60,640 nt of DNA. Source: Cystobasidiomycetes sp. EMM_F5 (taxonomy: Eukaryota). Both the position numbers and the translations under genes were made by a program. The DNA is taken from NCBI GenBank assembly GCA_051047955.1, contig JBPGPT010000010.1, forward strand, positions 496,001 through 556,640. The letters are read 5' to 3'. Below, in pieces: positions 38,823 through 60,640 of the stretch. Positions within the stretch are counted from its first letter, which is position 1; each line of letters starts with the position of its first letter. The notes beneath the pieces were generated by a model, which was not told where the DNA came from, searched no databases, and was given only the letters and a program-made list of their open reading frames with translations.

Positions 38823-40772
38823 TTACGCATGAACAACGTGTTCAGTCTCGTACTTTTCGTCATGGTCAACGATGCCCTTTTCCCGCTCGGAATAGCCAAT
38901 CTTGGTGTTTTCGCTGAGCTGCGCGACAGCACGGTCTCCATCGAAGAGTTGCGCAATCTCTGCAGATAAGCACAGAAACGAATGAGATAGAGTGCCATGA
39001 CATGCTATGGATGCCTTACCCTCGAGAGGAAGTGGTCCGTTTTTGCCCTTCGTTTCAAGCAAGTAGAAGTAGCAGAAGACGAACTCAAAGGCGATCCAGA
39101 TGGTGTATACGATGTAGTACTTCCACTTGAGCGCACCAAGTGCGATCGGGTTGGCATACTGGTTGAACACCAGCGAAGCGTTGACACAAAGATTCATTAC
39201 CATGAGGCCCTTGGAACGAATGCGGAATGGCAGGCTGTGTAGTCAAGAGTCAGAAACAGTACCTTCATCGTGGTTGAAAGACACACATTTCGACCGTGTA
39301 TGCCACGAGCAGTGGAGACATGGCGATGTTGTACGCGGCGTAATATAGAAAGATGGCAGCAAGGACACCGCGACCAGCGTTGGGATTTCCGTTGACGGGA
39401 TCACCAGCGTCGTCGATGCCTGTGGCAGTATTGGCGTAAACCGCCGCACAGATCGTCCACATGGCGTAAGAGAGACACATTCCGAAGCACGATGCCAGGA
39501 AAAGGGTTCGTCTACCAAGACGTTCGACAAGCAGAGCACCAAGAATAGCAGTGCCGTAGTTGTAGACTTGTAGGATACCGTTCAGAAGCGTCTTTTGACC
39601 TGCCAGGACGAAAAATCAGACATCACCGCAGGCGCATTAACGCGCTAGATCCACCAACCGGATGTCGTTATGCCTATACCGTTTAATACGATATTGAAGT
39701 AGTATGACACTGCAAGCAGTTTATGAGACTCTTTCCCAAATTTATTTAACGCAAATCTCACCAATTCCGTTACCAGACCACTGCGAGAAAAATGCGATGG
39801 CAATAATGATGCGCATACGTTTGCGATTGCCTGATGTGGAAAAGAGTGACTTGTAAGAAGCTGTGGCAGTGGCCTCTTGCTCCAATCGGATAGCTTCTTT
39901 GATTTCCTGGATTTCGAAATTGATAAGAGGATCGGTTGTATCACCTCCGCAATGGTGCTTGCAAATGACACGAGTCGCAAGAGCTTCCTTCCCGTTTGCT
40001 ACAAGCCATCTTGGCGATTCGGGAATGAAGAAGATGAGGATGACTTGAATGACGGACGGGAGGCCTTGAAGAAGGGAAGGGATTCTCCACGACCAAGAAC
40101 TATCAATGCGGAATGTGCCAAACGTGGTCCATGCTGCGATGATTGAGCCCAGATACCAGGAAGAGTTGTAGAGGGAGGTGAGCTGAGCACGGTGAGCGGG
40201 ATACGCAAGCTCTGTAATGAGGATCGGGGCGGCCAAGCAGGCAAACGATAGGCCGAAACCGATGAGGAAGCGGCAGCCGATAAACATTCCCACATTTTGC
40301 GCTGCCGACTGGAGCGCAACGCCCACGAGCATGATGATTGAGCCAATGAAGATGGTCATCCGCCGTCCGAACTTGTCATTCAGATAAGGAGCGAAAGGAA
40401 GCCCCGCTATACCCCCAATGCTTTGAATGGCGTTGAAAACTCCCAGAACAGACCCAGTAGGATGGCCAAAGTAGTCCTGCCATTGGTCTACTTGCTGCAG
40501 GCCATTCATCATGCTTCCATCGTAACCTAGAGGGAATTTTTCGAACGGGATGAATGGTGCGTCAACGTCTCGCCACGTTTGCCGTATAGGCGAGGTCCCG
40601 AATTTTTCGTAAACCTACCATTCGTTGCAGATGTAATGATGAGCAGGAAAATGATGGAGTTCAATACCAGGAAGTGTCCCCTAAACCACGATGTGTTTCG
40701 TCCTTTGATGAGGGCATCAGCCTCAGCAGAGGCCTGGTTGGAAGAGCGGTCGCGGATGTTGAATTCCTCCAT
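38823..40772 (-). CDS. MFS sugar porter, lactose permease/cellodextrin transporter-like, multi-exon
   Basis: NGYDGSMMNGLQ, DKFGRR, ITELAYP, PESPRWL, FFSQWSGNG, YTVE.LPFRIRSKGL and LETKG. Confidence 0.92.
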
Positions 40773-41429
40773 GATGATCTAGCCTGACAGTCTTGATGAG
40801 AGAGATGTAGAGACCAAGAGACAAAGAGACAACACGCAGGAAGGGTGAATTTATGCTCCCAGCGCATCAGACGGTGAGCCGGGGACTGGTAGGAGGGCCT
40901 CCACCATCGTCGGGCTACTCCAGACGGAGCAAAATCGGTGTAAAAGTCAGATTGCACGTATTGCTACGGGCGAAAGAGCAGGCTACGATTGACTTTGCTT
41001 AAGCCGAAAAGACGGAATGCTATTGCCACCTTCGTGCATGCGGAGACGCAAGCGGACGGACCTCGCCAAAATAGGGGGACGGTGCAACTGCGCCGTCAGC
41101 GGAATTCGCAAGGTATCACATGTCCGCTCACACTGCTACGTGCGAAATGCTGCTCCGTAGCGGTCGTGTATGATTGAACGGCTTTCCAATGACGGCGACT
41201 TCTGAAGACGGTGAAGTCTAACGATGCAGCAGCTGACCCTGGGCCGGTAGCCCGGACAGCAGTGGTAGCACTGCGCTGATCACCATCGTCGAGCTTGTAG
41301 GCCGGATCTGCGCAGGGATTTGACACGCCGCTTGTGGAACTGTTCATACCCTACTTCGATTCATACAGCAGGATAACAGGCAGTAATCTCTGTAAACGTC
41401 ACTACGCCTGTCGACTTTACGCGACGAAC
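40773..41429. promoter_or_regulatory. Divergent promoter shared by sugar porter and GH5, CGG-triplet rich
   Basis: Lies between head-to-head ATGs at 40772 and 41430. Many CGG/CCG triplets, including CGG-N8-CGG at 40925-40938. Confidence 0.4.
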
Positions 41430-43640
41430 ATGTCTACTTCGAAGCTGAGCAACGGGTCCGACCATGGTTTCCTGAAAGTCACAGGGGAGCACATCACGTT
41501 ACATGGAAGCCCTGTGCTGTTGAAAGGTGAGGCGATACAGTCATGATTGGGATGACTGGCTTGACAAGTCGCAAATAGGGGCTGGACTAGGAGGCTGGAT
41601 GAACATGGAGAATTTCATTACTGGTAGGTTCAGAACTCATCTAATGCTGCCAATCCAATTACTGACTGATAAAATCGAACCTGCAGGATACCCCGGACAC
41701 GAGTTTCAAATTCGAGCAGCTTTACAAAAGACCCTTGGTCAAGAGAAGTACGAATTCTTCTTCGACAAGGTAGACCTTCTCTGCTGTGGTAGTGGACATG
41801 CCCACGTCTCTCTGACAGCCTCGACCAGTTCCTTGAGCATTTCTTTGGGGAGGACGATGCGAAATTCTACGCCGAATTAGGCATGAACTGCATTCGTCTT
41901 CCAGTAAATTATCGTCACTTTGAAGATGATATGAATCCTCGAGTATTCAAGAAAGCAGGTCTGAAGCATTTAGACAGGGTCATCGACATCGTATGTATCG
42001 AACCATTGAGGAGACTGCTACAAGCTCATGTCGTAACATATGACAGTGCGCGAAATACGGCATTTACTCCGTCATTGATCTCCATGCTGCTCCCGGAGGT
42101 GCGTCAATCAGCGCTATCGAGAGCATGCGCAGCGGCTACTAAATTTTACTTTTGCAGGCCAGAACATCGATTGGCACGCTGATGCAGGTACACGCGCTGC
42201 ACACCGTACACATTGTCGACTTGTGCTGATCCTTGAGGACGGTGACAGGAAATCACCAAGCCCTGTTTTGGGAACACAAAGATTTTCAGGACAGGACGGT
42301 CATCATCTGGGAGCATCTAGCCGAGGTCGGTTCCTCTACAAGTCGTCTGCAGGAAGTGCCGCAAGCTGACTCAACCTTCAGCACTACAAAAACAACACCT
42401 GGGTCGCAGGCTTCAATCCTTTGAATGAACCGACAGATATTCAACACACTCGTCTCACTGCCTTCTACGAGAGGATTGAGAAGGTCATTCGCAAAATCGA
42501 TTCAAACCACATTTTGTTTTTAGAGTGAGTTTCAGATGGTCTGCTTACAAGGGGGCATGCTGCTGATATGCGATACATGTTCGCAGTGGGAAGTGGGTAC
42601 AATTGCAATGTGACAATTTAATCACTTCAATGTCGACTAACTCGATGTCGTACAGCACTTTCGGCGCCGACTTCAGTCGATTCGGTGATCCTCTGCCAAA
42701 CACAGTATATGCTTGCCACGACTATAGCAAGTACGGCTTCCCTAATCCTCCGGAAGAGTTTACCGTTAGTTGAGGATGCAGACTGGGAGCATACTAGCTA
42801 TAGATTATGCTGACACTAAACTCTTCTGCTGACAGGGTTCCGAAGCACAGGTTGCCCATCACGAGCGTTCTTTCAAGCGGAAGGTAGAGTATATGCAAAA
42901 ACACAAAGTGAGTGACGTATCATAGTCGGTCGCGAGCTTCTAGATCGCTAATAGCTTCATGGTGTCTCAAGATTCCCATCTGGAACGGAGAGTTTGGGCC
43001 AGTCTATCAAAACGGCACCGACGGTTTGGAGAATTGGGAACACATCAATGACACTCGATACCATGTCTTGAAGACACAGCTCGACATTTACGCCAAGGCG
43101 AAAGCGTCGTGGTCGATCTGGCTGTACAAGGATATTGGGTTTCAAGGCATGGTCTACGTCTCTAAAGACACGCCGTATATGCAGCGCCTCAAACCTTTCC
43201 TTGAAAAGAAGAAGGCGCTCGCTGCAGACGAGTGGGGCTGTGACGATCTCCCCGTTCGTGAAGTATTTGACCCTCTCGAGAAATGGTTTCTTGCTGCGAC
43301 GCCCAGCTTGTCCAAGCGTTACCCGCAGACATGGAAGCCGGCGACACACATAGGTCGACTCGTACGAAACATCCTTCTCTCTGTAGGTGTTGATGTTTGC
43401 TACTTTGGCACATTGCTAAGCATAACAAACGAGCAGGAGGAACTGGTAGATGAATGGGCATCGTACTTTGAGGGATTGAGCGAGCAAGAACTTGAAGCTC
43501 TTGCCGAGAGTTTCTCTTTCCGTCAGTTGGTGCTCTATTTCAGCAGAATTGCTTGCTAAAAGATGCCCCGCTCTACAGGCAATTGTAGACAACGTACACG
43601 TCTGAATGAGTATTTGACAGCGGACTCGAAGCGAGCATGA
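41430..43640 (+). CDS. Glycoside hydrolase family 5, intracellular, resembling subfamily GH5_22, multi-exon
   Basis: GLGGWMNMENFITGYPGHE, NCIRLPVNYRHFEDD, acid/base LNEP and nucleophile PIWNGEFGP. No signal peptide. TGA at 43638-43640. Confidence 0.9.
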
Positions 43641-43981
43641 TATCCGGATAGAATGCGAATGCGTTTATGCAGTGTGAAGTTTCATACAGCTTACAGAACC
43701 GTAATGCCACAATACTGCATGTAATGTACTTCTGTATATTGCCACCGCTTGCTACAGTACCCCTCGCTCGGGCCGGAAAATCGGCTCTTTTCATACAGGG
43801 AGCTCGGCCCTTTCCTTCGAAACATCACGTATGCATCTGCAACTGCTTTAGCTGTAAGTTAGCGAGCAGCTAGTGTGCGCACTCCATTGAGGCCTTCTGT
43901 CTGTATCGCTGCTCACGATTGGCGTCTGTTCAGCAGCGTCGCTTGTCAGCCCGATGACAGACTGACTTGTCTGCTACGAGG

Positions 43982-46541
43982 ATGTTGCCGCCCAGCGTCC
44001 TACGAACCTGCGACTCATGCCGCTCAAGAAAAGTAAGAGAGCCATGTCGTCTGCCTAGAGCTTGGAAGCAAGCTAAATGCTCCACAGATTCGGTGCATCG
44101 TGCCCCCCAACTCGAACGATCACAGTGCGCCTCTGGCTTGCGCCGCCTGTCTGTCGCGCAATGCAGACTGCCAATGGACGCATGTTTATCAGCGCAAAGC
44201 TGCTCGGTCGCTGTAAGCGGGACATTCAAGTTTGCCTTGCTCGTAGGGATAGCCTTGTTTTGACTGTTCCTAAAGGCGATCTCGCACGCACACCCCGCGC
44301 GGAGACACCCGTCAACATCGGCCAACCACGTCCACTAGTCTCCAGGATCTAACAACATCTATACGGCCTTCGCTGATCTCGCATGGATCTACACAAACTA
44401 TGCCCGAAATCTCACCCAGTACGGATGCTGGCGAGACTAAGCACTTTCTTGATTTTCTTATGCTAGATGGCAGCTCTGCGCCTGCACTACGAAGCGATCA
44501 GTCTATCGCTCCTGATAGCAGGCCTGACGCGCAGATATTCTTGGCCAATCCAGCCGGACTCTCTGCAAACGAGCCGAGTTCTCAACAGGCGCTTGCGGAC
44601 AATGAAGGCGACTTTTCCGGTATGGTAGACTTTGCTTCGTACTTTGGCGCGTTTGCAGGTGTATTCGGCAACGATGTCGCCGACACAAACGCGTTGCCGG
44701 ATGCCGCTCCCGCGGAAAACGCGAATAGTGCAGAGACATCTGGAAATAGTGCGTTCGCGACGCATCTGTCTCCAACTTTCTTGGCATTCAGCCCGGCGGA
44801 AGCTGTAAATATACGACAACCCAGCCTTCCATTGACCACGACAACTGCCGGCAAAATCCATGATTCTCCCACAGCAGCTAATGGACAAATCATTCCCCTG
44901 AAGACCCAAGCGTTTTCGAGTGAGATTCAACAGCAGGCAACGTCGCATTCCCATATAGCTGGATTTACGGGCTTCTATGGCACACTGGCTGCTCCAGATA
45001 TCGCACTCGACGATGTTGCTCCGTGGACGACTTTCAGCTTCATCTTGCAGCACTTTCTGAGCCATATGCACTGTCTGGTTCCTCTTGTTCACAAGCCTTC
45101 ATTTGCACAAGATCTTATGATGGGACGGGCGAAAAGAGATCGGGAATTTCGGGCGCTCGTATTTGGCTTAGTGTCATTGACGATTGGCCAGTCACCCTTG
45201 AGCAAGATGGCTCATATAAGTCGACCAGAGCTGGAAAGGTTACACCGGGACTGCCACAGGGCAAGCATGGTTCTTCTCAACCGCTCGTTTCGGAAGCCAA
45301 CAGTAACGCAGCTTATTGTTCTGATGTCGTCAGTTCTTTTCCCATACGACTATATATGCGCTCACCTACGTCGTCCGCCAGATGCTATTACTACTATGCA
45401 TCCGTAGAGCAGTCGCTCAAGGCTGCTATGATGGTGGCTGAAACCTGTCAAATTATGCATGCTCTGCGTTTGCATGATGAACAAGCATTAGAGTGCATGG
45501 GTCTCAACATTTGCGAAATCGAGATTCGAAGGCGTATCTTTTGGCACATGATGAGCATTGATACGTGAGTTGAGCGTTGAGTTGTCATATGGCGAGTGTG
45601 TATGCTGCCGTCTAACCGAATTCTCCTGGCGTGTTACCTTGTTTCGCAGTACGGAGGCATACCTCAATGACCACCCACTCCATGTACGAGAAGAAGAAGG
45701 CACTCCTCCCTTTCCATCGGAGATCGACGACGAATACATTACTGCGCAAGGTGTCTTTACGCAACCTAGCGGCAAATTGTCGTACCTCTCCGGCTTTGTA
45801 CGCAACGTTAAGATTTTTCCTGTCATCCGCGAAGCCATCGTCCGCAGCCGGTCTCTGCGGAGACGCCTGATCCTTACAGCAGAAGCGAAAGCGGACGCTT
45901 TAAGCTGGCTGAACTCAGCTGAGACCCGCCTGATGGAAGTTACAAATGACCTGCCAGTCGCTTTATGCACTCCTGAACGTCCGCCGGATTCGGATGACAT
46001 TCAAGAGGTTATTCGTGGGATCCAACGGGCAAATATATTCGTCACCGCCATCTCGGCTCGCTTCGCCGTAGTAAGCCGCATATGCTGCGGTGACGTCTGC
46101 GACACTGATTGTTCTGCAGTTTGAGTATCGTATGATGCACGATTCCAACAATACGGACAGCCTGATGAGGCAAAGGGATTCAGCTTCCCGCGAAACATAC
46201 ATTTTGTTATCCAGGTAACTTCGCTGTGTTGTAAATGAATGAGTGGTGAGCCACACTGACCTGCTTTCTTCAGCATCCCGATCGAAGCTCTGGCTAACAA
46301 CGGAGAGAATATGGTGAGTAACGTGAAAGGGGAGGGAATACATCTTTGCTCACGCAATAATATACAGCGAGGCAAAATGAAACGCCTGATAACAACGTTA
46401 TTGAATTGCACAATGACCGTCGGCGCTGCAAACTCACTGAAGGACTGGTGGGAAATGTACAGTAAAATCTCCTTCATTCAATTTGTACCGATGCCTTTGG
46501 ACAGCAGTCTCTTCAGCCGTGAGACCACGCCAATTCGGTGA
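43982..46541 (+). CDS. Zn(II)2Cys6 transcription factor with fungal middle homology region, multi-exon
   Basis: Spliced CDSCRSRKIRC...CAACLSRNADC, plus PLVHKPSF and EIRRRIFW. Confidence 0.88.
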
Positions 46542-46900
46542 TAATCACACAGCACAAAACTCCCAATTCGAGAAGCTTTTCCCCGCACTCCTCTTTTGGT
46601 CTGTTGAGTGCCATTCGTATTTGTAACAATGTAGCATAGCATGTCAGCTGTAGGAAAGACTGTGCAAGCATAGCGAAGGATCGTCCGCTTTTTCCTCATC
46701 GGGTTTGCGGCCTAGATCACAACCCCTCCGCCGGATCCACGTGACGTCTGTCGGCGCGGCCTTGTCTCCGCCCGACACTTTAAATTTGCCAACCCCTCGT
46801 CCCCTCACAAAGACCCCGACCTCTACACCGGAAAGTCTCAAGTCTACATCCCAGCTACTGTAGTGCACATTACGACGGTCTCTATTGGCAGATTCGACAG

Positions 46901-49852
46901 ATGACTTCTACCGAGAAATACCAGCGTCTCGATGTCGAAGACGTAATAGCGAAGCTCAAGCTAAGCGACAAGGTTGCTCTGCTATCCGGGACAGATAATT
47001 GGCACACCTACGCCGTTCCTAGTCTGCGAATTCCGCCTGTGCGAGTTAGCGACGGCCGTACGTTCCGCCGTCCCGCAAACGGATACCCGCGTTCCAGTAC
47101 CACTGTCTGATTCATTGCCTGACAATGTGCAGCCAACGGCATACGTGGCATCACATTCTTTAATGGAACAAAGTCCAACTGCTTTCCAGTTCGTCCTGGT
47201 TTGCTTTTACTCGTGAGCATAGAGAAATTTGACTATTTTCCACAGTGTGCAACTGGACTGGCGGCTAGTTTTAACGTAGAACTCATAGAGAGGGTTGGCG
47301 TGCAGATGGCCGAAGAGTGTCGCGCTAAGGGTGCTCATGTGTGGCTCGGTCCTACTCTGAATGTTCAACGTTCTCCACTCGGAGGTCGCGGATTCGAGTC
47401 CTATTCAGAAGATCCGCTTCTTAGCGGTAGAATGGCTGCAGCAATAGTACGTGGCGTTCAGTCTCAAGGCGTTACAGCCTCGCCCAAACATTTCGTATGC
47501 AACGAACAAGAACGAGACCGAATGAGCAGCTCCTCTGAATTATCCGATCGCGCTCTACGAGAGATATACCTGAAGGCGTTCCAGGTTCTGATAAAGGAAG
47601 GACAACCTGGTGCTCTCATGACCGGGTAGGTTGTTCGACTCGCTTGAGCTGTACACCGAGTCCTGAAGAAATCCCATAGGTATAACAAGGTCAACGGCAC
47701 GCACTGCTCGGAAAGTGAATATCTTCTGAAGACTATCTTGAGAGACGAATGGGGCTTCGATGGCATGATAATGAGTGATTGGTTCGGAACCTATTCAACG
47801 GCAGAGGCTTTACGTGCTGGCTTAGATCTCGAGATGCCGGGTCCTTCTATGCTTCGTGGAACTCCGTTACTGCGTTACCTAGCCGGCAACAAGATCCGCG
47901 AATCTGAACTTACCCCTCGCTTGAAGAAGGTAAGGCCCGTGAATCGAGCGCCTGCGGACCATGCAGGCATCACTTACAATCATGTTGTAGATTCTTGGCG
48001 TCGTCAATACTGCCATCGCTTCGAAAATTGAGTTCTACAAGAAAGAAGAAGCAGTCGACAACGAGCAATCCAGGAAGCTTTTGCTTGAGGCTGCCCGGGA
48101 AGCGGTTGTCTTGATCAAGAATCATGATAACGTGCTGCCACTCCCTATCAAGAAGCATCAGAAAATCGCCGTCATCGGTTCAAATGCTCAATTTGCGAAT
48201 ATTAGCGGCGGAGGTTCCGCATCAATGAAACCCACTTATGCCGTAACACCACTACAAGGTGTAAAACAAGTAGCTGCTGATTCCGAGATGGATGTCACTT
48301 ACGAACCCGGCGTCCAAACGCACTTGTACCAGCCGCTCCTGGATCCGTGGGTAGAGGGCGCTTTCCATATCGACTTCTTCTTGACAGACCCTGCTGCCAA
48401 CAAGACCGTTCAACCTGTCTGGAGCCTGGACTATGATACGTCCATAGCCCTAATGGTGCGTGTTCGGCGTGTCACATACTGCGTGACTGCTCAAATGCAA
48501 TGTGCAGGGCGATGGTCTGCCTCGAGACATTGTTCCACGGCGATGCTATGTACGGATGAATTGCACCATGATTCCGGATCATACTGGTTTGTGGGAATTT
48601 GGTTTGAGCGTAGCGTAGGTCACCTTGATTTCGTTGTTCGGCATTTGACATCTGCTAACCAACCATCTCTTATGCTAGTGGAAAGGGAGACCTTTATATT
48701 AATGATGAAAAGGTCATTGATAACTCTGAGAAACAGACACCTGGGGAGCTCTTCTTTAATACAGCCACTGTCGAGGAGAAGGCGAAAATACAATTAGAGA
48801 AAGGCCGTGCATATCGTCTTCGGCTGGAATGGCGCAATGTTCACCTGGGTGCCGAGTCTGATTTTGGAGGATACCGCATTGGTGCAGCGCCGGTCCTCGA
48901 AGTGGAACCTTCAATTCAGAATGCCGTAGATCTGGCAAAGCGAAGTGATGCAGTCATTGTGATTGTGGGAACAAATGCGGAATACGAGTGCGAAGGGTGT
49001 GAGTCATCGCCATTTTGAACAGTATAAGTGTGCAACTGAAACGCTAGATTAGACGACCGCAAGACATTAGCCTTGCCCCCACACGTCGACGAAATGGTTG
49101 ACCGAGTATTGAAGGCCAACGACAACAGTATTGTCGTAGTACAATCTGGGATGCAATGTCTGATGCCGTGGTCACAGCAAGCCAAAGGCATCGTGCAAGC
49201 ATTCTTTGGCGGTTGCGAGCTGGGTACTGCGCTAGCCGACATTATTTTCGGGGTAGTGAGCCCAACGGCTAAACTCCCTCTGACATTCCCTTTGAGAATC
49301 GAGGACGTGCCGTCCCATCCGCATTTCCCAGGCAAGAACAACAGAGTAATCTACAACGAGGATGTCTTTGTCGGTTATCGAAATGCTGAATCAACTGTAC
49401 CTCGACAACCAATCCTTGCCTGCTTTGGCCACGGCTTATCGTATACCACGTTCGAATTGGACAAGCCGTCATTGGATGCTATTATCGACCCTAAGGCCCA
49501 GTCCGTACAAATTGCTATCGATGTTGGAGTAAGTAATACGGGTCACCGTTCTGGTTCGGAGGTTATACAAGCATACGTGCAAGCTCCAGAGTCTCGCCTG
49601 CCACGACCACGTTTGGTGTTGGCATCGTTCTCCAAGCTGGCCCTGCATGCTGGCCAAACGAAAACTGCAGTCCTCTCATTCGATCGCGATATCTGCAGTT
49701 ACTGGGACGAAATGGCAGAATGTGATGGTCGTCTGGGTGCTTGGGTTGTGGAAGCGGGAAAGTACGCTGTTCATATAGGAACCTCTGTACGAGACTTGCC
49801 TCACATCGTTACATTTGTCATTGAACGAGGCTTCATGTGGCGAGGCATGTAG
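46901..49852 (+). CDS. Glycoside hydrolase family 3 beta-glucosidase-like, intracellular, PA14-type insert and FnIII domain, multi-exon
   Basis: VSDGPNGIRG, GGRGFESYSEDP, KHFVCNEQE, nucleophile MSDW, GLDLEMPGP and FGHGLSYTTF. No signal peptide. Confidence 0.93.
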
Positions 49853-49982
49853 ATCCTAATAGTAAAGTCAGGCATAGCCAGCATACTATTCAGAGGATAC
49901 TACATAACCTACGGACACGAATAGCGCTGTTATTTTGTTCGCGGCTGGCAAATGCTGTATAGTCTATGCGCAGGCCGTCCAG

Positions 49983-51793
49983 CTACGATGCTTCCTTCTC
50001 TTGGAGCTGTTTCCTCGCTGATTTGTCGTCGCGTATCCGCTCAACAGCCACAAAGACTGCGATACCGGCGAAGTTTATGAAGAGAATGGCCACAAGAACA
50101 CCATAGAATAGACCAAGTGATGATTGAGTGCGAGTACCGTAAAACAACACCTTGTAAGCCTCGACTGTATTGTAGAATGGCAACGCGCGCATCCTGTAGC
50201 CGTTTGACTTATGTCAGCGTTGCTTGAGTCCGTACATGATGACGTACCATCTGTAGAAGACATGCATGACTTCTATCGGCTGAAAAGAGGACGTGATATT
50301 CAAAATAACCCAGCAGATTCTGCAGAAGTTGTGAGCATAACTTCCTGTATAATTTTCTTTCGGAGCTCACAAGAAGAACGGAATATACTGTAAACAGACA
50401 GTCAGATTGGTGTTAAAGTCGATTATGGTCATAATTCGCACCTGGGATGTCAAGAGGGCCATCATACTCTCCAGCGCCAGGCCCACACAGCAGAGACATA
50501 GATAATTTAGCAGCCATAGCATCACGAAACCTGACTGCGAGTTGAACACGCCGTCTGTGGGTATTTGAAACGCTACAAAGAGCCTGAGCGTTTGGTACCA
50601 TTCAGCAACTGTCGTAGCCGATGCTGCAACTGCATACTACTCACAGGCTGAACATCAGGGACACAAATACATAGAAGAACATCGGCAAGCCGATGCGCCA
50701 GAGTACGAGCCATGGGTATTGAACCTTCTGGTTCCAACCGGTCTTGTCGCGACCCGCATTAAACCAGGTCGCCATTTCGAAACTCTGGTGTCAAGATAGG
50801 AATTTCAGCTGATAAGCGAGCAGCGCAGTAACCTTGCTCGACTGACCAAAATAAGCAGGTATATCAACCCAGCTTCGAACGGTGCGGCGGCACTCCACTG
50901 GTTGATGGGTGCAACCTGCGATGTGGGCAGAGGTCTCAGTCAGCGTCAACGTCAACGCCTGGTCCCATATTAGGCGACACCACTTACATCTTCCGAAAAG
51001 AAGCTAAAGGGCGTAGCGAGCGCTTGAGGAACGGTAGCTGCAAGAGCTAGGGCAGTGGTATTTGAGGCATTCGCTGTAAGCCACGACTGCAGAGCCTGGG
51101 ATGAAGCTTGACGCGTTGCGGATCCAGCTACTCTCTGCATGAATGGTAACAGATACAGAAGGGTAATCTGTGGCAATGAATTGGGTTAGGACTTGAATAC
51201 GATGTTACATCAAAGGACAAAAGTTGCGTACTTGGTAAAATCTGGCTCCTGACAAGAAGATGCCGACGCAACCGGTGGGATCATACGATGTATTGCCGAC
51301 TTGCAAGGAAGTAATCCATGTACTAGTGCAATTGGAATAGGTGACGATCGCACCCCAGTAATGCGATAACTTCACAGCGTCTTTAACCTGACTTGGACCA
51401 CCAGGAAACGCAGAAGCCGGCAGATTTATACTCCCAAGATGAGGGTTCATTGGCGAGTCATTCATTTCTTGAAGTATCTGAATCACAGCAGGTCCCACAA
51501 CGGCTGCATTCAGGGAAAGTTAGAAGATTCTGCATTCCGACAGCTTCATTGGACACACCATCGTCGAAGTTTACTGATAGAATAGTAAGACGATGAAAGT
51601 AGTTGAGCAAGAGCAGGTTGCTTCCCCAGAAGATTGGCAGCGCAATCCAAAGTATCGCGGTAATGAGAATGATTCCAGGCAGCCATGACTTTAAAGTATC
51701 CTTCCGCTCTTTGGCGAGCGACGCATGCCAGAAAGGACGCTGATTAGAGCTCAGTTGAGCTTTGGCGACAGCGGCACTGTCTCCGGAAGTCAT
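49983..51793 (-). CDS. SNG1/DUF3533 family multi-pass membrane protein (copy A), multi-exon
   Basis: LPIFWGS...LTILSVNFD, YWGAIV, YDPTG, GFVMLWLLNYL...GLALESM, PFFL..WIILN and YRMRALPFYNTVE. Confidence 0.75.
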
Positions 51794-51987
51794 AATGCTT
51801 TCATGAGAGTAACAACAGAGCGAAGAAACTTCGTCTTCATACCATGCTGGCACCTGTCTGTCGATTTGAGATTTTGAAACGAGGATCGGCAGTCGATGAC
51901 AGCTTTGCTGCTCAGGAATTTCTTTCGCCTCATGAGCTGATGACTACAGCTTCCTGCGACGACCTCATTGCCTGAGCAGTCGCCCAC

Positions 51988-53785
51988 ATGTATAACCTGT
52001 TTGCGTCTACGTCGCCTGACGGCAAGCCGCGATATCCCCCATTCCATGACGCTCTGCGTAGCGAAAGAAGGACTATCTTTAAACTCGCTCTCATCAATTT
52101 AGGTCTGGTGATTGTTTTCATGTGGACATTTGTAGCTTTATGTCAGCTAAGCTATTCGCCTGCGCTGCAAAGGATTTACGCTGATTCTGCCACCGTGGAT
52201 CCTCCAGATTTTGGCTCATATTATCGACAGACCCAGAATGCCAATCGATTGACCGTACGAATACTAGACTTGGACTCGGAGTACAGTGCCGCAAATCCTA
52301 CTGCTTCGGTCGCTGTTCTTGGCCCTGCCGTCAGAGCAGCAGCGCTTCAAAGTGAGTCACGAATGTTGGAAACGCAGACTATATTTGTTCTGAATCGAGC
52401 GGGCTTACTGTTCAGATGCGCGAGAATATCCTGACTTCCACCTTGGCTGGCAGATACCAGAAGTGGGAGGCGAAGAGCTGGGGCAATTGAAGTTGCAAGA
52501 AGGCGGCCAGGGAATTAATGCGTCTCAGTACGCAATGAATCTCGTGCTGGATCAAACCGTCTTTGCTGTGATCGTCATCAATCCGAACGCTACACGTCTT
52601 GCTACAGCTGCTGCACTCACTGGCAACATGGCCTATGACAACCGGGGCGCTATCAGTTTCTTCTACGAAGAAGGTTGGTCAGGCAGGATGGTTGGATGCT
52701 GTCTGTTCTGACTGCTCCTATGGGCCCATACAGCTAGAAATTTCTACTCTACTAATCAGTACGTCGTGCGCTTCAGCACGACCGTCATTGAGCACGCAAT
52801 TGCGCAAGCAGCAATTTTGCTGGCCTCGGAAACTTTACAGCGTGCAGTTACCAGCACAAACTCCTCAGTCATAAGCACCGCTGCTGCTGGAAAAGCTCTG
52901 TCTTATCCTTTCTACTATTCAGAGTGGAACTTGAGACCTTTCGACCAACTTGCTGCAGAAGCAGCCACGACTGCCGGACAGATATGTCAGTCAAGCATTA
53001 CGCATGCTTCTACTTCAAGAATGAGGAAGCTAATCCTTCCGACTGCAGATCTGATTATATTTACCTTCTTTGCATCACCCTTGTGGAAGCAAGCCTTTGA
53101 ACCCCTACGGCCCAAACTCACTTATTCGAGTCAAATGATTTTGCAGCTAGCCGTCCCAATTCTCTCATACTTCTGGATATCTTTTAACTATTCGCTAGTG
53201 ACTCTGGCTTTCAAGACCGACTTCCGCAGACTCTTTGGCGTAGGCGGTTGGCCACTTTTTTGGCTGAACAATTGGGTTTGTGGGTGCAGCGATCTGCGTT
53301 TATATGCGGCATAGCTGAATCATTCATCAGCCATGACGGCGCTAGGTTTGGTCATGGAGACAATGCTACGCCTGCTTGGACCACTGTTCTTCCCTTTTTT
53401 CCTCTTGGCATGGGTCATCTGGAATGTTTCAGTTGCCTTCCTGGACATCGCGGATGAAGCACACTTTTACAGCTACGGCTTCGCATTCCCTGTCTGGAAC
53501 TCCATTGATGCGTCCAAAGCGATCATTTTCGCTACAAAAAACCACCTACTGCAAAATTTTATGGTCAACTTTGGCTGGTATGTGTGTGTGACAACCGGTG
53601 ATGTTGCGTATCAGCTCAGTTGCAGGCTATGCAGGGTAATTGGAGGAAGTATTGCTCTGCTGCTGGTTGTCTCGGTGCAACGTCGCAATGAGGAACTCCA
53701 GAATATCAGGAAACGCGTAGAAACTATCGAGAAGGAAAATTCTGCTCGTCCGGATTCTCACAGCAGCCAGGTCACAGCTACTTGA
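51988..53785 (+). CDS. SNG1/DUF3533 family multi-pass membrane protein (copy B), multi-exon
   Basis: FGSYYRQ...LTVRILDLD, VFAVIVINPNAT, YDNRGAISFFYEE, FWLNNW, GLVMETM, PFFLLAWVIWNVS and FYSYGFAFP. Confidence 0.75.
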
Positions 53786-54681
53786 GCAAAGAGCAAGCTC
53801 AAATGAGTTCCATCAGGCAGCAGCGGCGCATTGTGACTATCACAATCTTGAACGGCGCCGTCTTCTTTCTTTGTCTTGGCTGTGGCGCAATGCAGACAGA
53901 CAAAGGACAATGATCATCAATGTAAGCCTGCGCGGATGCTGTAAGCGCGTGCGCGGGTCGCCACTGCTCGCCTGTAGTGTGCAACTGTTTTCGTGGGAAG
54001 CCACACGCAAACTTCGCAGACTGAGACATATCCATCAATCAACGCCAACAATGATGTACCTATGCGAGATCCAGCACATTTTCAACTTCCCCATACTGAA
54101 TGGCTCCTTGGCATTCGGTCTACCATCGTCCGGCCGATCAGGTCTACTTATGCCTAAGGCGTGAACTTCCCTGGTGAACCCATTGGATTTCTCCGCAACC
54201 GCACCCAGTACTCAACAGGCTCGCAAACAAGAAGGCAATTTTGTTTTGGCATGGTTGACTTTGCTTTGTATTTCAGCGCGTTTGCAAAACTGGTCGGACC
54301 GCCAACGCGTTGCGGTGGTGCACAAAATGCGCTGCCGGATACCGCTGTCGCGGAGCACGCAAATAGTGCGGTGACGAAGCAGTGCATTAGCAACTTATCT
54401 ACTCCGTCAGTATCGGCAGACGGTATCTGCCGCCGTTTTGACCTTGATTGGCTGCAACGCTATCCAAACTATATATGTCACCATATGACAAAGTTACAAT
54501 AATTCCAACAAGCATGAAAAGCACTTCACTGAATACTTGATCAATTTAACACAACCCTGTTTGACCGTCTTCATTGCCTCTTGAGGATGTGAAGCCGGCT
54601 GTCGTTCTCGCTCTTGTCGCCCAGGAAACTGTTTCCCAACCAGCTGCAACTGTCTTTGATGTCGAAGAGCCAAGCCGGCGG

Positions 54682-55163
54682 TGTCACGACCCGACCCTAA
54701 TTGGGGTAGACTCGAGGTACTCGAGTGAGTCTCGAAGTAGTGGAGGCCGACTCGAAGGTTGGGGAGGAGAGTCGAAAGGGCGGAGGTCTCTCAAAAGAGC
54801 TCGAAGAGTGTCACGCACACCAAAAACTTGATCACTTGCAAAGGGTCAAGCCGGCCGTCTCTCAGCGACGACTGGCTCTGGCCAAGTCCAACAACCACGC
54901 TGGCATGTATGCACATACTGTTGGCACCAATACGACACATACAACACCCAACCCCCAATTCTCTAGTCCTTGTCGTCTCTCATCGACGATATACTAATCC
55001 CTGCAACATCCACCACCCCTCCTTCAACACCCTACTCCCCCTCCGCCTTGCTGTCACGAATGTCACCAAAATAAAATGTATTGCCCCTCTAAAAAGTCAC
55101 TAAAATATAAATACAACAAGACTCAAACCCCCGATCTATTAACAAAAGAGAAAGACACCTATA
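54682..55163 (+). mobile_element. Probable nested or truncated LTR 5' fragments
   Basis: TGTCACG at 54682, 54809 and 55052, and TGTCAC at 55061, all in the same orientation as TGTCACGATCC at 55164. Composition changes after each. No matching right ends seen. Confidence 0.4.
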
Positions 55164-56507
55164 TGTCACGATCCGTACACATCATTCCTGACCTCTAGTC
55201 AAAATCCCGATGGTCATATCTCAATTCCCGACTGAGATACATAATTCCCGAAGAACAACCCTTCGTCTAAGTTGCGAATTCTCCATCGGTAATTTCACCA
55301 TGTGACTCGCCATATCATGTTTGGTACTTTCGCCAAAATTCCGATGAACATATGTCAAGATTTGACGAAGTTGCAATAATCCCGATAAGCAGCATACAGA
55401 CAACATCAACAATCGTTATCGGCAATTATGCCATGCGACTCAGCACACTCGACTTGCTATCCTGCCGAGATTCCCCTAAAAGTCCGATGCTTCTTCACTG
55501 AGATAGAGCCTTGCCTCGACTCATCGACGAGCGACGACAACTTCCGCAATATGCAAGATATTTACTCCGGGATTTCGACAGTGGTCTTTCTACATCAAAT
55601 GGAGTCTCTAGCAAAAATCGCGGTGTCCGAAATCCTCATTTCCATGGACCTGTGTACCGCTCTCAAAATGGACGACATGCGACTTCGCCAATATTGGAGA
55701 TATCGACTCCGGTATTTTCGTGCTGGCTCATCTACACCTTGGAATACCTTAGCAAAAATCCCGGTCGTCATATCTGCTCTTCCCTTTGAGCTATGGCAAC
55801 TCTTCGCCGACTTTAGGCCGACTTTGAGCCGACTTCCAAATGGCCTAAATCTTCATCGGTATTTTTGCCAACGCATCCGCCGCACTTCCAAATGGCACTT
55901 CCATATCCGTCGCAAATTCTCTCGTCAACTTCCATCGAGTAAATCGCGTATATCCGACTTCCCATTTCCAGACCCACTTTCCTCATCCGGTATTTTGTCA
56001 TACGCATTCGGCAATTTCCTCAATAGCATTCTTGAGTCTACTTAGTGCATTTCCAAATCATTTTCCACAACGTTGTAAGATAGAATGCCCTTCTTCTTCG
56101 TTGATTTCTGAAAAGAGTTACTTAGGGTAAAACTTCGCTCCGGCATTTATTCTGAGTATCGGTGAGGCTTCTGTCTGTTCATCGACAGTCGTATCGAGGA
56201 CGCTCTTCGCTGTCCGCGACCTCCGGCATTTTTCTACTGCTACCTCATCTTGTCTGCATTTATCATCCACTCCTCTTCCTCTGGAAAAATAGCGATAAGC
56301 CCCTCGCAGACCCGGGCTTCCTCCTCGACACTCGTCGGCAATATTTCAACGTCGTCTGACGTCTCCGGCAATTGTTTTGGCCTTCGGCATTTTCTACTGC
56401 CGTCGGTATTTATTATTTCGCTTCGGGATTTTTTCCCAAGCATCGGGATTTTCGTAACACACTCGTAGAACATCGCTACGGGTGTTCAAGTCGCGTTAAA
56501 CCTTACA
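55164..56507 (+). repeat. Putative 5' LTR (left boundary uncertain; alternative start TGTAAG at 56074)
   Basis: TGT...ACA termini (TGTCACG at 55164, CCTTACA at 56501-56507). The right end is followed by a self-priming site, and element-typical motifs begin near 55200. No second LTR is available to confirm. Confidence 0.55.
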
Positions 56508-56508
56508 C

Positions 56509-56519
56509 TAGAAATCAAC
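56509..56519 (+). promoter_or_regulatory. Self-priming primer-binding site
   Basis: AGAAATCAAC (56510-56519) is the exact reverse complement of GTTGATTTCT (56100-56109). T56509 can wobble-pair with G56110. There is no TGG tRNA-type PBS. Confidence 0.7.
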
Positions 56520-56546
56520 CTTTCGCTATTTCCACAATCCCTCGTC

Positions 56547-57734
56547 ATGTCTACCGTTGGTCGCGTCACTACTCGGTCAATGGGACAAGGTGTCATCCAA
56601 GCTCAATCTATTCGTTCCGTACCCCTATCTCTCAGCAAGTCTGAACCTCTTCAACGTACTGGCGAAATTCCCGAGCAGTCACCTGATGACACACATGAGC
56701 AGGAGGATGATCTCGTATCGAATCATTCCCACGCCGCCTCCACTCATGCAAATATTCCCGAAAGTCAAGACACAGTCATGCTACGCCTTCTGGCCAAGTT
56801 GACGGAAGCCGAGATTCGTCGTTCCGCCTCACCGCCTCCTTCCATGGAAGCGTCGAAGGGGCCACACGCAAGAATTCCCGATCCGTTCGATGGCAAAGAC
56901 AGAAGCAAGTTTCGGCCTTTTTTGGCCGCACTTCGTGTCGTCTTCCTCAACCATCCGCGACGGTTTAATACCGATAGGAGCAAGGTCCTCATGGCAGGAT
57001 CTCTTCTCACCGATATTGCCGCGGACTGGTTCGAGCCTTTCACTCATGACTCTGGTAAAGAGGCCATCATACTTGATGATTGGCACATCTTCGTTGATCG
57101 TATCGAATCCATGTTCGGCGACCCCGACGCTGAGGCAACTGCCGAATACAAGCTCGAGGCCCTCAAAATGTCCGAACGTGATTCCATCTCTACTTATATT
57201 ACCGAGTTCCGCACATATCAAGCACAGCTTGATTGGGGCAATTCACCACTTCGGTTTGCTTTCCGCCGGGGTTTGCCTCACCGCATCCTAGATAAATTAG
57301 CGACGATCTTGGAACAGCCCAAGACTCTGACTGCCCTCATGGAGGCTGCCCAGCGCATTGACCAGCGTCACTGGGACCGTGAGCGCGAGAAGAAGTTGCA
57401 CCGTCATAAGGATGGCTCGAAAAATCCCGAAAGTCATCGCAATAATGCCGAACGCCCCTCAAACACATCAAACAAAAATACCGAAAGCAAGTCCTCTGAT
57501 TCCCGACCCCAAAAGAAGACAAACAACAAGCTCAAGGATCTAACCGCTATCCTCACCAAGGACAACAAGTTGACCGCAGCTGAAAAATCCCGAAGAGCTG
57601 AACAAGGTCTTTGTTCGTACTGTGGAGGACCGCACAAGATCGATGATTGCAATGTTCGCCCGAAAACTTCATATTCGCGCTCAGTTAAAAATAGCGAGAA
57701 GTCAAAGGACGTCTCCGCTGATCCAAAAAATTAG
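56547..57734 (+). CDS. gag: Retrotransposon Gag, 395 aa
   Basis: PDPFDGKD, LLTDIAADWF, YITEFR, FRRGLPHRI, and zinc knuckle variant CSYCGGPHKIDDC (CX2CX3HX4C). Confidence 0.92.
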   Translation: MSTVGRVTTRSMGQGVIQAQSIRSVPLSLSKSEPLQRTGEIPEQSPDDTHEQEDDLVSNHSHAASTHANIPESQDTVMLRLLAKLTEAEIRRSASPPPSMEASKGPHARIPDPFDGKDRSKFRPFLAALRVVFLNHPRRFNTDRSKVLMAGSLLTDIAADWFEPFTHDSGKEAIILDDWHIFVDRIESMFGDPDAEATAEYKLEALKMSERDSISTYITEFRTYQAQLDWGNSPLRFAFRRGLPHRILDKLATILEQPKTLTALMEAAQRIDQRHWDREREKKLHRHKDGSKNPESHRNNAERPSNTSNKNTESKSSDSRPQKKTNNKLKDLTAILTKDNKLTAAEKSRRAEQGLCSYCGGPHKIDDCNVRPKTSYSRSVKNSEKSKDVSADPKN

Positions 57735-57793
57735 CGGGCGATTCCGGCGCGCACTCCGGTCATCGCAATTTATCAAATCTTCGAAATGTGCGC
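57725..57793 (+). other. -1 programmed ribosomal frameshift signal (slippery heptamer plus pseudoknot)
   Basis: A_AAA_AAT at 57725-57731 immediately before the gag TAG, then a 6-nt spacer and a stem GCGAT/ATCGC plus CCGG/CCGG. Loop GCGCAC is complementary to GTGCGC at 57788-57793. The -1 frame is open into pol. Confidence 0.8.
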
Positions 57794-60532
57794 TTCCGAG
57801 GAAATCCCGACTCTCCTCACTCCATGTATCATTCGGTTACCCTTGTAAACTATCCCGGTATTTATCGAGCACTCGTCGACACTGGCGCTTCCGACAGTTT
57901 CATCGACCCTGCTCAATTCCCCTTCGTTCTTCATACGGAGAAAATTCCCGAGCCCGTCAAGCTCATTTTATTTGGCGATGATGATGCTCCACTCATCACT
58001 TCGGCAATTTCTCTCATGCTCGACACTGGTTTGTCGTCGGCATTTTCTCACCGCTTCCTGGTGACTCAACTCGAAGCCTCTTGTCCTATCGTGCTAGGAC
58101 TCGACTTCCTTCGTAGAGCCAAACCTTCCATGGACTGGTCTACATCCACTTTGGCACCTTCGCCTGCCGCAAATATTCCCGTGGCTCCACTACGCGCAGC
58201 CCAGACTTCGGAATTTTTGGTTTCAGACTTCTTCGACCCTGATGAAGACCCTGACGAAATTACCGAAATCATTAAAGTCGTTCCCTCCGAGTACCACGAC
58301 TTTCTCGATGTCTTTTCGAAGGCAAAGGCGGAAATATTGCCGCCATCCCGGTCCTATGACCATACTATTGACCTCATCGATGACGGGAATTTACCTTCCA
58401 TCGGCGCAATTTATTCCACATCAATTGCCGAAAGCAAGGCCCTCAAAGATGAAATTGACGGTCTTTTAGCCAAGGGATTCATCCGGCCTTCCAAGTCGCC
58501 CATCGGCGCTCCGGTATTATTCGCGAAGAAAAAGGGAGGTGCACTTCGTATGTGCATCGACTATCGGCAATTAAATTCCCGAACTCGCAAGAATAAGTAT
58601 CCCATTCCCGCAATTAATCATCTTCTCGAGCGACTTTCGCAAGCTCAGGTCTTCACTAAGTTCGACCTGCGAGGCGCTTACCATCTACTACGCATAGCCG
58701 CAGGCCACGAGTGGAAGACTACCTTCCGCTGCCGCTATGGCGCGTTCGAATTCCTCGTCATGCCTTTCGGCCTGACCAATGCTCCGTCATCCTTCCAACA
58801 TTTCGTTAATGACGTTTTCCATGAGCATCTCGACAAATTCATCATAGTCTACCTAGATGACATCCTCATCTATTCCAACACCATGCAGGAACATCGCCAG
58901 CACGTCCGTCAAGCACTTTCATTGCTTCGGCAATTTAGGCTCTTCGCCAAGGCAAGCAAATGCCACTTCCATGTACCGTCCGTCGAGTATTTGGGGTACA
59001 TCGTCGGTCAGAACAGTATTTCTATGGACCCTGACAAGGTTTCGGCAATTTTAGCTTGGCCTATTCCAACATCGGTCAAATCAGTACAGTCTTTCCTTGG
59101 TTTCGCTAATTTTTACCGAAGATTCATTCGGGAATATTCAAAAGTCGTCACTCCGTTGACGGCACTCACCAAGAAAGACTCGGCATTTTTGTGGAGCCCC
59201 GCCTGCCAGCAAGCATTCGAGCTCCTAAAATCCCGATTCAGTACTGCACCTATCCTCGCACATTTTCAACCCGACCGCAAATTTATTCTTGAAACTGACG
59301 CGTCAGACTACGCAATTGGTTCAATTCTGTCTCAAGAGGACGCTTCGGGAATTTTACATCCCGTCGCATTCGACTCGCGCAAATTATTACTGGCTGAGCT
59401 GAACTATGAGATCCATGACAAGGAGCTCTTGGCCATTGTATGGTCGTTCTCTCGCTGGCGCTCAATGCTCCAATCCACCTGCGAGCCAATTCAGGTATTT
59501 TCGGACCACAAGGCTCTGGAGTATTTCATGTCATCCAAAGTACTCACCCGCCGTCAAGCAAGATGGTCGGAAATTTTGTCCGAGTACGACTTCCGAATAG
59601 TCTACCGTCCGGGTAAGCAGTCGCAAAAACCCGACGCGCTATCACGTCGAGACGACGTTTATCCTGAAGGGGGGGAAGGCGCTTACGCCAGGAATAATCC
59701 CGATAATTTCCGAACTCTCCTTCCTCAATCTACTCTAGCCCGTGTGCAAACATCCGCACTCGTCAGCAAAAATCCCGAGCTTCGTGCAACGCTTGGCGAA
59801 ATTACCGATGACATACCTTCGCTAATTACCGAGATACGCAAGGCCCAGGATAGCGACGATGCGCTTCAAGCACTTTTGGCAAATCCAACCAAGTCAAAAA
59901 TCCCGAGCAAAATTCGCGACGATGGTATCGTCGTATTCAATGACAAGGTTTACGTCCCATCCGACCCCACCGTCAGATTGCTCATCCTACGCAGCAAGCA
60001 TGACCATGTTGTAGCAGGCCATCCGGGAATTTCTAAGACACTCGCCCTGATCAAGCGAGCATACTACTGGCCCGGCGCTAAGGACTTCGTCACAGATTAT
60101 GTTTCATCATGTCTGATTTGTTCGCGAAATAAATCCCGAAGACATCAGCCTTCCGGACTTTTACAGCCGCTACCCGTAGCGACTCGCCCTTGGATTTCCA
60201 TATCCATGGACTTCATTGAGGAGCTTCCTACATCAAATTCCTACAATTCAATCCTCGTGGTGGTCGACCGATTTACTAAGATGGCTCATTTCATCCCTAC
60301 ATTCACGACAGCAAATTCCCGAGACCTCGCAAATATTGTTATCCGACACGTCTTCACCAAACATGGAATTCCCGACGACATAATTTCCGATAGAGGCGCT
60401 AAATTCGTCAGCAAGTTCTGGCAACGTGTCTGTTCGAGCCTCGGCATTTTACGCAAATTATCTAGCGCGTATCATCCGCAAACCGATGGTCAGACCGAAC
60501 GAGTCAACTCCGTACTGGAGCAGTATCATTAG
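57731..60532 (+). CDS. pol: Retrotransposon Pol (protease, RT, RNase H, integrase), truncated in integrase
   Basis: Protease LVDTGASDSFI, RT YLDD, RNase H ETDASDYAIG, integrase HHCC (HDHVVAGH...CLIC) and D-D-E (SMDF, SDRG, QTERVN). The stop codon is supplied by telomeric TAG at 60530-60532. Confidence 0.95.
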   Translation, partial: LAGDSGAHSGHRNLSNLRNVRFRGNPDSPHSMYHSVTLVNYPGIYRALVDTGASDSFIDPAQFPFVLHTEKIPEPVKLILFGDDDAPLITSAISLMLDTGLSSAFSHRFLVTQLEASCPIVLGLDFLRRAKPSMDWSTSTLAPSPAANIPVAPLRAAQTSEFLVSDFFDPDEDPDEITEIIKVVPSEYHDFLDVFSKAKAEILPPSRSYDHTIDLIDDGNLPSIGAIYSTSIAESKALKDEIDGLLAKGFIRPSKSPIGAPVLFAKKKGGALRMCIDYRQLNSRTRKNKYPIPAINHLLERLSQAQVFTKFDLRGAYHLLRIAAGHEWKTTFRCRYGAFEFLVMPFGLTNAPSSFQHFVNDVFHEHLDKFIIVYLDDILIYSNTMQEHRQHVRQALSLLRQFRLFAKASKCHFHVPSVEYLGYIVGQNSISMDPDKVSAILAWPIPTSVKSVQSFLGFANFYRRFIREYSKVVTPLTALTKKDSAFLWSPACQQAFELLKSRFSTAPILAHFQPDRKFILETDASDYAIGSILSQEDASGILHPVAFDSRKLLLAELNYEIHDKELLAIVWSFSRWRSMLQSTCEPIQVFSDHKALEYFMSSKVLTRRQARWSEILSEYDFRIVYRPGKQSQKPDALSRRDDVYPEGGEGAYARNNPDNFRTLLPQSTLARVQTSALVSKNPELRATLGEITDDIPSLITEIRKAQDSDDALQALLANPTKSKIPSKIRDDGIVVFNDKVYVPSDPTVRLLILRSKHDHVVAGHPGISKTLALIKRAYYWPGAKDFVTDYVSSCLICSRNKSRRHQPSGLLQPLPVATRPWISISMDFIEELPTSNSYNSILVVVDRFTKMAHFIPTFTTANSRDLANIVIRHVFTKHGIPDDIISDRGAKFVSKFWQRVCSSLGILRKLSSAYHPQTDGQTERVNSVLEQYH

Positions 60533-60640
60533 TAGGGTTAGGGCTTTAGTAGGGTTAGGGCTTTAGTAGGGTTAGGGCTTTAGGGTTAGTAGGGTTAGGG
60601 CTTTAGTAGGGTTAGGGCTTTAGTAGGGTTAGTAGGGTTA
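60529..60640 (+). repeat. Telomeric repeat array, main unit TTAGTAGGGTTAGGGCT (17 bp) with variants
   Basis: G-rich strand runs 5'->3' to the sequence end. Five complete 17-mers plus extra TTAGGG and TTAGTAGGG blocks. Confidence 0.9.

Follow-up and report, generated by a model that had tools for sequence, protein, structure and literature searches.

Why should a yeast chromosome appear to end, in the middle of a retrotransposon gene, in a 17-base repeat built around TTAGGG? The question is raised by the 3' end of a 60,640-nt stretch of contig JBPGPT010000010.1 from the Cystobasidiomycetes isolate EMM_F5 (the window), whose last 112 bases, positions 60529-60640, form a tandem array joined to a truncated Ty3/gypsy element. 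The tract is probably a variant, seemingly unreported, of a telomerase-made telomere, and an unusual one for the phylum. We think it likely that it represents a real telomere at a healed chromosome break, whether its 17-base unit is the repeat of the whole genome or a variant restricted to the inner part of this end.

What is the structure of the array? On the forward strand, a script parses the tract as ABC ABC ABC B ABC ABC A A TTA, where A is TTAGTAGGG, B is TTAGGG and C is CT. This matches exactly the block order, and the 17-base unit embedding TTAGGG, described in a first-pass annotation of the window. The 17-mer TTAGTAGGG+TTAGGG+CT occurs in five exact copies in the window, all of them inside the tract, with none expected from 100 dinucleotide-preserving shuffles. 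Tandem Repeats Finder returned a period of 17, 5.8 copies and a score of 154. TTAGGG was counted six times inside the tract and TTAGTAGGG seven times, and the CT dinucleotide follows five of the six TTAGGG blocks and none of the seven TTAGTAGGG blocks (hypergeometric p ~0.005; 6/1287, by hand arithmetic). This coupling of CT to the TTAGGG half means that the higher-order unit of 17 bases is real and the tract is no random mixture of two short repeats.

The G-rich strand of the tract is the + strand, which runs 5' to 3' outward at the 3' end of the window, and the tract reaches the last window base (60640). Elsewhere in the window nothing resembles a telomeric cluster: TTAGGG occurs once and CCCTAA ten times, at scattered positions, below the roughly 14-16 expected from composition. 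Terminal in the window, with its G strand outward and a TTAGGG core, and joined to a truncated gene, the tract has the look of a true telomere. The core TAGGGTTAG is found seven times in it, at least once per 17-base unit. We take TAGGGTTAG to be the type of site read by Myb-type duplex telomere proteins, and its presence in each unit would account for continued function.

To what is the repeat joined? The gag and pol open reading frames that precede it belong to one Ty3/gypsy retrotransposon oriented toward the window end. The pol frame is cut 16 residues past the start of its TDGQTER motif, and its stop codon, TAG, falls in the first repeat. In 37 of the 39 relatives listed, pol continues for at least 199 residues past the start of this motif; the two exceptions (16 and 113 residues past TDGQTER) are seemingly cut by contig ends. 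The polyprotein is shorter than its relatives by about 180-320 residues, with the integrase core as its last Pfam domain. Most relatives listed also carry, in their precomputed domains, PF00385, which we take to be the chromodomain. The element has thus lost the C-terminal part of its integrase, the chromodomain seen in relatives and the 3' long terminal repeat (LTR).

The passage from retrotransposon to repeat is abrupt. The first 17-base unit is perfect and begins 1-3 bases from the last retrotransposon codon, with no degenerate or subtelomeric transition, and the junction codon encodes His where all 39 relatives listed have Leu, Ile or Val. The repeats sit directly on truncated internal sequence, the arrangement that defines de novo telomere addition. 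A perfect first unit directly on formerly internal sequence is what a chromosome break mended by new telomere addition leaves behind. The element was not inserted into a telomere, since the sequence upstream of it contains no telomere repeats.

How could such an end have been made? A chromosome break would have occurred inside the integrase gene of the Ty3/gypsy element, and telomerase would have healed it with repeats synthesized straight onto the broken end. The tract would then be the inner ~112 bp of a genuine Cystobasidiomycetes yeast telomere. The RNA template may be about 19-23 nt long, comprising one 17-base unit and 2-6 bases repeated at both ends, so that each full round would add TTAGTAGGG-TTAGGG-CT. 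The 17-base unit holds TAG three times and TTAG twice, a redundancy that could let the DNA end re-pair out of register; one +3 and two -9 slips in about seven rounds would then have produced the extra TTAGGG and the TTAGTAGGG doublet. That the 17-base unit is the genome-wide telomerase product we regard as the better bet, with real room for doubt. For the fullest version, a yeast with a telomerase RNA (TER) template of ~20 nt whose chromosomes all end in the 17-base composite repeat, we would put the chances at even.

Does the slippage account for every irregularity? The tract was treated as a walk around the 17-base cycle, in which jumps kept at least 3 nt of 3' homology. A minimum of three non-canonical jumps generates the whole 112-base tract from one 17-base cycle, and the homology threshold leaves four equivalent solutions of the 135 minimal ones. 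The first slip is +3 after TTAG, between 60583 and 60584, at the 3-nt homology TAG; the second and third are -9 after TTAG, between 60589 and 60590 and between 60632 and 60633, at the 4-nt homology TTAG. All irregular units derive from the 17-base cycle by TAG/TTAG slips and are explicable by template slippage or realignment, and to that extent the realignment at internal TAG sites proposed in the first-pass annotation is supported.

The same annotation had traced all variants to a single product of ~20 nt and predicted from them one RNA template. To weigh this proposal, 85 template registers (17 starts x 5 overlap lengths) were compared. The proposed register (product 60539-60558, last templated base at unit position 13) places two of the three events at translocation: the two -9 events become alternative realignments after a full copy, and the third event needs a mid-template slip. 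If the last templated base is instead unit position 4 (the G of CT-TTAG), as with product 60529-60549, all three events fall at translocation, as one alternative realignment and two premature translocations. Registers that end at unit position 7, in the second TAG, place one of the three there. The variants do not predict one particular template: the suggested register is one of at least three and not the most sparing. With only three events at one chromosome end, the register cannot be fixed.

How is the end represented in the available assemblies? The Spb1 frame of the window groups at 90% or higher with NCBI protein KAL7007770.1 of EMM_F5, which matches it at 99.8% over 645 residues; the DNA is therefore from this species or a strain all but identical to it. 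According to the genome note on EMM_F5, 2x151-base Illumina reads (142x) were assembled with SPAdes into 253 contigs totalling 18.6 Mb; the isolate is placed near Microsporomyces there, and telomeres go unmentioned (PMC12697161). If the window comes from this 2x151-base Illumina assembly, a read-length-limited tract of ~112 bp is what would be expected at a real telomere. A nanopore base-calling artefact was considered and set aside, the EMM_F5 assembly being Illumina-only (PMC12697161). The identical truncated pol recurs in a second assembly, as P0241 (902 aa) on a contig of 4,092 bp, with Spb1 (P0121) on another of 212,351 bp; in a named NCBI assembly, Spb1 lies on a contig of 556,640 bp. 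Because pol and Spb1 are on separate contigs in the second assembly, the join of the unique genes to the retrotransposon plus telomere is assembler-dependent, which shows that the element is a repeat boundary. P0241 was not used as independent proof of the junction, since its 4,092-bp contig either holds the junction or stops there.

Positions 40641-60640 were also compared with three sequencing runs of one study (shares 0.06-0.11), presumed to be of RNA. Contigs of these runs are spliced and at least 99% identical over two genes of the window, and include one conserved 34-base snippet at 58850-58883. The same three runs give zero cover at the junction or in the tract, which is uninformative either way.

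Could the 17-base pattern be a local feature of this end? Telomerase might make a simpler product genome-wide, TTAGGG or TTAGTAGGG, with the 17-base pattern a proximal, end-specific variant stretch and the distal telomere homogeneous; a short-read assembly would reach the inner stretch alone. Human telomeres are a familiar case of variant repeats in the proximal part. Here just ~112 bp next to the junction are in view, and the TTAGTAGGG doublet at the tract end could mark a change of pattern. TTAGGG is also the basidiomycete norm (PMC13234504; PMC12506658). Against this, the tract offers five letter-perfect 17-mers from the very first unit on a non-telomeric end, and at a healed end the proximal repeats, too, are telomerase products. 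Moreover, a 6- or 9-base template cannot put CT after every second repeat, as the distribution of CT (5/6 versus 0/7) would demand. We consider a purely local pattern unlikely. The main mechanistic rival dispenses with telomerase: the tract would be an end-specific array maintained by recombination, as in the telomerase-less Microstromatales yeasts (of the alternative lengthening of telomeres, or ALT, type). Basidiomycete yeasts with non-canonical, end-specific terminal arrays do exist (PMC13234504), but the model fits a TTAGGG-built 17-mer poorly. The Microstromatales arrays described in that report are without TTAGGG-like sequence, whereas the EMM_F5 tract contains six TTAGGG and seven TTAGTAGGG blocks, and the distal motifs given there for three Microstromatales species measure at least 41 bp, compared with 17 bases here (PMC13234504). 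The irregularities in the tract are register slips at homologies of 3-4 nt, as expected from a template-copying enzyme, and we judge maintenance by recombination improbable.

Is the array at a chromosome end at all? It might be interstitial, mark a chimeric contig end at which telomere reads were attached to the wrong copy of the element, or be an artefact of assembly. The genome probably holds further copies of the retrotransposon region, leaving its link to the unique genes to the assembler, and the window simply stops in the tract, with non-telomeric DNA in view on the proximal side only. The orientation, however, is that expected for a terminal array. The pol frame of the second assembly ends at the same residue as that of the window, its contig holding the junction or stopping there, and had copies of the element been mis-joined, the telomere would still exist, only at a different end. 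Nor is random error expected to give five perfect 17-mers with structured variants. A non-terminal origin therefore seems highly improbable to us.

What, then, weighs against a telomerase-made telomere at a healed break? The evidence is confined to one chromosome end and 112 bases. At the junction itself, the A at 60528 misfits both the canonical unit, in which TTAG is preceded by T or G, and the Leu/Ile/Val codon of the relatives. It may have entered during healing, as an untemplated or misincorporated first base, or be a mutation peculiar to this copy of the element. No copy of a TER template was found in the window, where matches to the C-strand 20-mer lie solely in the tract, and a search of the 60-kb window against Rfam returned 0 families, which is uninformative at that window size. 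An 18-mer of the repeat matched 11 loci in JGI metagenome contigs, as single matches in unrelated contexts, none of which extends the repeat.

Six of these metagenome loci (L003, L004, L006, L007, L008 and L011) carry the 18-mer in one conserved gene-like context, shared by 6-7 loci, with a GC content of 0.47-0.53; they look like chance occurrences of the motif in a conserved gene of organisms unrelated to this yeast, and are not telomeric. Two others of the 11 loci share a second context.

Has the repeat been described before? The first-pass annotation did not recognise it, and it appears to be unreported in the searchable literature and in the TeloBase 2023 list. The 17-mer, in any rotation and on both strands, was not found in the searchable literature, subscription journals and preprint supplements being outside its scope; the 9-mer turned up there in primers only. 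The TeloBase 2023 supplementary list, to which later entries do not belong, contains none of five substrings that jointly cover every rotation of the 17-mer. A keyword search of the searchable literature yielded no telomere paper for Cystobasidiomycetes, and a 26-mer of the repeat had 0 matches in a collection of prokaryote genomes.

Features of the tract, the element and the neighbouring genes are collected in Table 1.

Table 1. Coordinates of the terminal tract, the retrotransposon and neighbouring genes in the EMM_F5 window
Feature	Position	Strand	Remarks
Telomere-like tract	60529-60640	+	Three 17-base units, TTAGGG, two units, two TTAGTAGGG, TTA
Three perfect 17-base units	60529-60579	+	Exact matches at 60529, 60546 and 60563; first at the junction
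Extra TTAGGG	60580-60585	+	Most sparing account: +3 slip, then -9 slip
Two further perfect 17-base units	60586-60619	+	Exact matches at 60586 and 60603
TTAGTAGGG doublet and TTA	60620-60640	+	Second -9 slip after TTAG (between 60632 and 60633)
Retrotransposon-telomere junction	60526-60529	+	Last relative-matching codon TAT (Tyr), then CAT (His)
pol open reading frame, Ty3/gypsy	57788-60532	+	RT, RNase H, integrase zinc finger, DDE core
gag open reading frame, Ty3/gypsy element	56547-57734	+	Retrotrans_gag, Ty3 capsid
End-proximal gene	52449-54103	+	Spliced contigs at least 99% identical, three runs
End-proximal gene	49932-51711	-	Spliced contigs at least 99% identical, three runs
Spb1, rRNA methyltransferase	16879-18939		Housekeeping
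RPB2	13678-15849		Housekeeping
APC2 cullin	9830-11416		Housekeeping

The Ty3/gypsy element (56547-60532) is apparently young, its gag and pol frames both being open. In the protein collection, even the closest relatives do not exceed 72% identity over the aligned part. Self-comparison, comparison with the remaining window and primer-binding-site-like motifs all failed to fix the boundary of its 5' LTR; the LTR search gave a weak match alone, between 54190-54375 and 44560-44737 (71%).

The two end-proximal genes are the last ordinary ones to precede the retrotransposon. Their introns are short, 51-122 bases, and run GT..AG, or CT..AC on the minus strand. At 50319-50442, contigs of two runs carry 17 letters found on neither side of a 122-base skip, possibly a micro-exon within the intron. 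Farther inward, RPB2, Spb1 and the APC2 cullin lie within 45-50 kb of the window end. The gene-poor subtelomere is short, which is consistent with a terminal deletion.

Why would such a telomere matter? Basidiomycete telomeres are regarded as conservative and vertebrate-like, and the 17-base unit would show that long composite repeats arise there too. If genome-wide, it would be, by the searchable literature, the first description in Basidiomycota of a long, complex repeat made by telomerase. The 'runaway' telomere evolution known to date from budding yeasts would then have begun independently in this yeast, whose duplex-binding proteins would still be served by one canonical TAGGGTTAG site per unit. 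The unit would give a natural test of how far Myb-type telomere proteins tolerate changes in spacing, and its built-in TAG/TTAG redundancy would offer a natural system for the study of template realignment. In Cystobasidiomycetes, so long a unit would also serve as an almost unique query for the gene of the telomerase RNA. The healed break in the retrotransposon would record a recent terminal deletion. Should other ends carry plain TTAGGG, the finding would shrink to an ordinary variant stretch.

How does the EMM_F5 end compare with known systems? The first-pass annotation had referred to filamentous fungi, most of which use TTAGGG, whereas EMM_F5 is a basidiomycete yeast. RPB2 of the window places it in the Pucciniomycotina, its best named matches, at 81-83% identity, being from Puccinia, Leucosporidium and Microbotryomycetes. 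Basidiomycota predominantly have TTAGGG-type repeats (PMC13234504; PMC12506658), and within the Pucciniomycotina, Rhodotorula strains have been assigned TTAGGG and Rhodosporidiobolus nylandii TTAGG (PMC12800127; PMC13234504). With canonical TTAGGG telomeres such as those of Mycosarcoma (Ustilago) maydis and Rhodotorula, the EMM_F5 tract has in common the outward G strand, a TTAGGG block in each unit and, presumably, synthesis by telomerase. Canonical units measure 5-6 bases, in contrast to the 17 here, which combine TTAGGG with a TAG-expanded TTAGTAGGG and a CT spacer. Even the non-canonical telomerase-type motifs quoted for Basidiomycota span 5-7 bases (PMC13234504; PMC12506658).

Among these, the variants TTAGTG and TTAAGTG of Malassezia have been attributed to point mutations in the template and alignment slippage (PMC12506658). 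Malassezia also belongs to the Basidiomycota, and the mechanism is of the kind proposed here; its units, however, are 6-7 bases long and its TER has been identified, as against the 17-base unit of EMM_F5. In Jaminaea and related Microstromatales, genomes are reported to be without TERT and Tpp1, and the terminal arrays differ from end to end (PMC13234504). These are likewise basidiomycete yeasts with non-canonical terminal repeats, but the EMM_F5 unit is instead made of TTAGGG-type blocks. For the junction, the closest parallel is Pyricularia oryzae, in which de novo telomere formation on broken chromosome ends is documented (PMC8381367). There, too, a terminal truncation left telomere repeats in direct contact with sequence that had been internal; those repeats are plain TTAGGG, compared with a composite repeat inside a Ty3/gypsy integrase here.

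Long or irregular telomerase repeats are known from the Saccharomycotina, which belong to another phylum; as proposed here, their long unit is encoded by the template and goes back to TTAGGG through insertion. The TTAGTCAGGG-type repeat, for example, is that of Yarrowia. Motifs of 8-28 bases are included in the TeloBase list, and 'runaway' telomere evolution in budding yeasts is the topic of a dedicated paper (PMC12449055). The nearest relative of the EMM_F5 repeat comes from the ascomycete Lipomyces suomiensis, whose (TTTTAGTAGGG)n array, found at contig ends, contains the TAG-duplicated block TTAGTAGGG preceded by T (PMC6692504). The motif TTTAGTAGGG in the TeloBase supplementary list likewise contains TTAGTAGGG preceded by T. 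Both are single blocks of 10-11 bases, without the alternating TTAGGG-CT half that characterizes the EMM_F5 unit, and the resemblance to Lipomyces suomiensis is most likely convergent.

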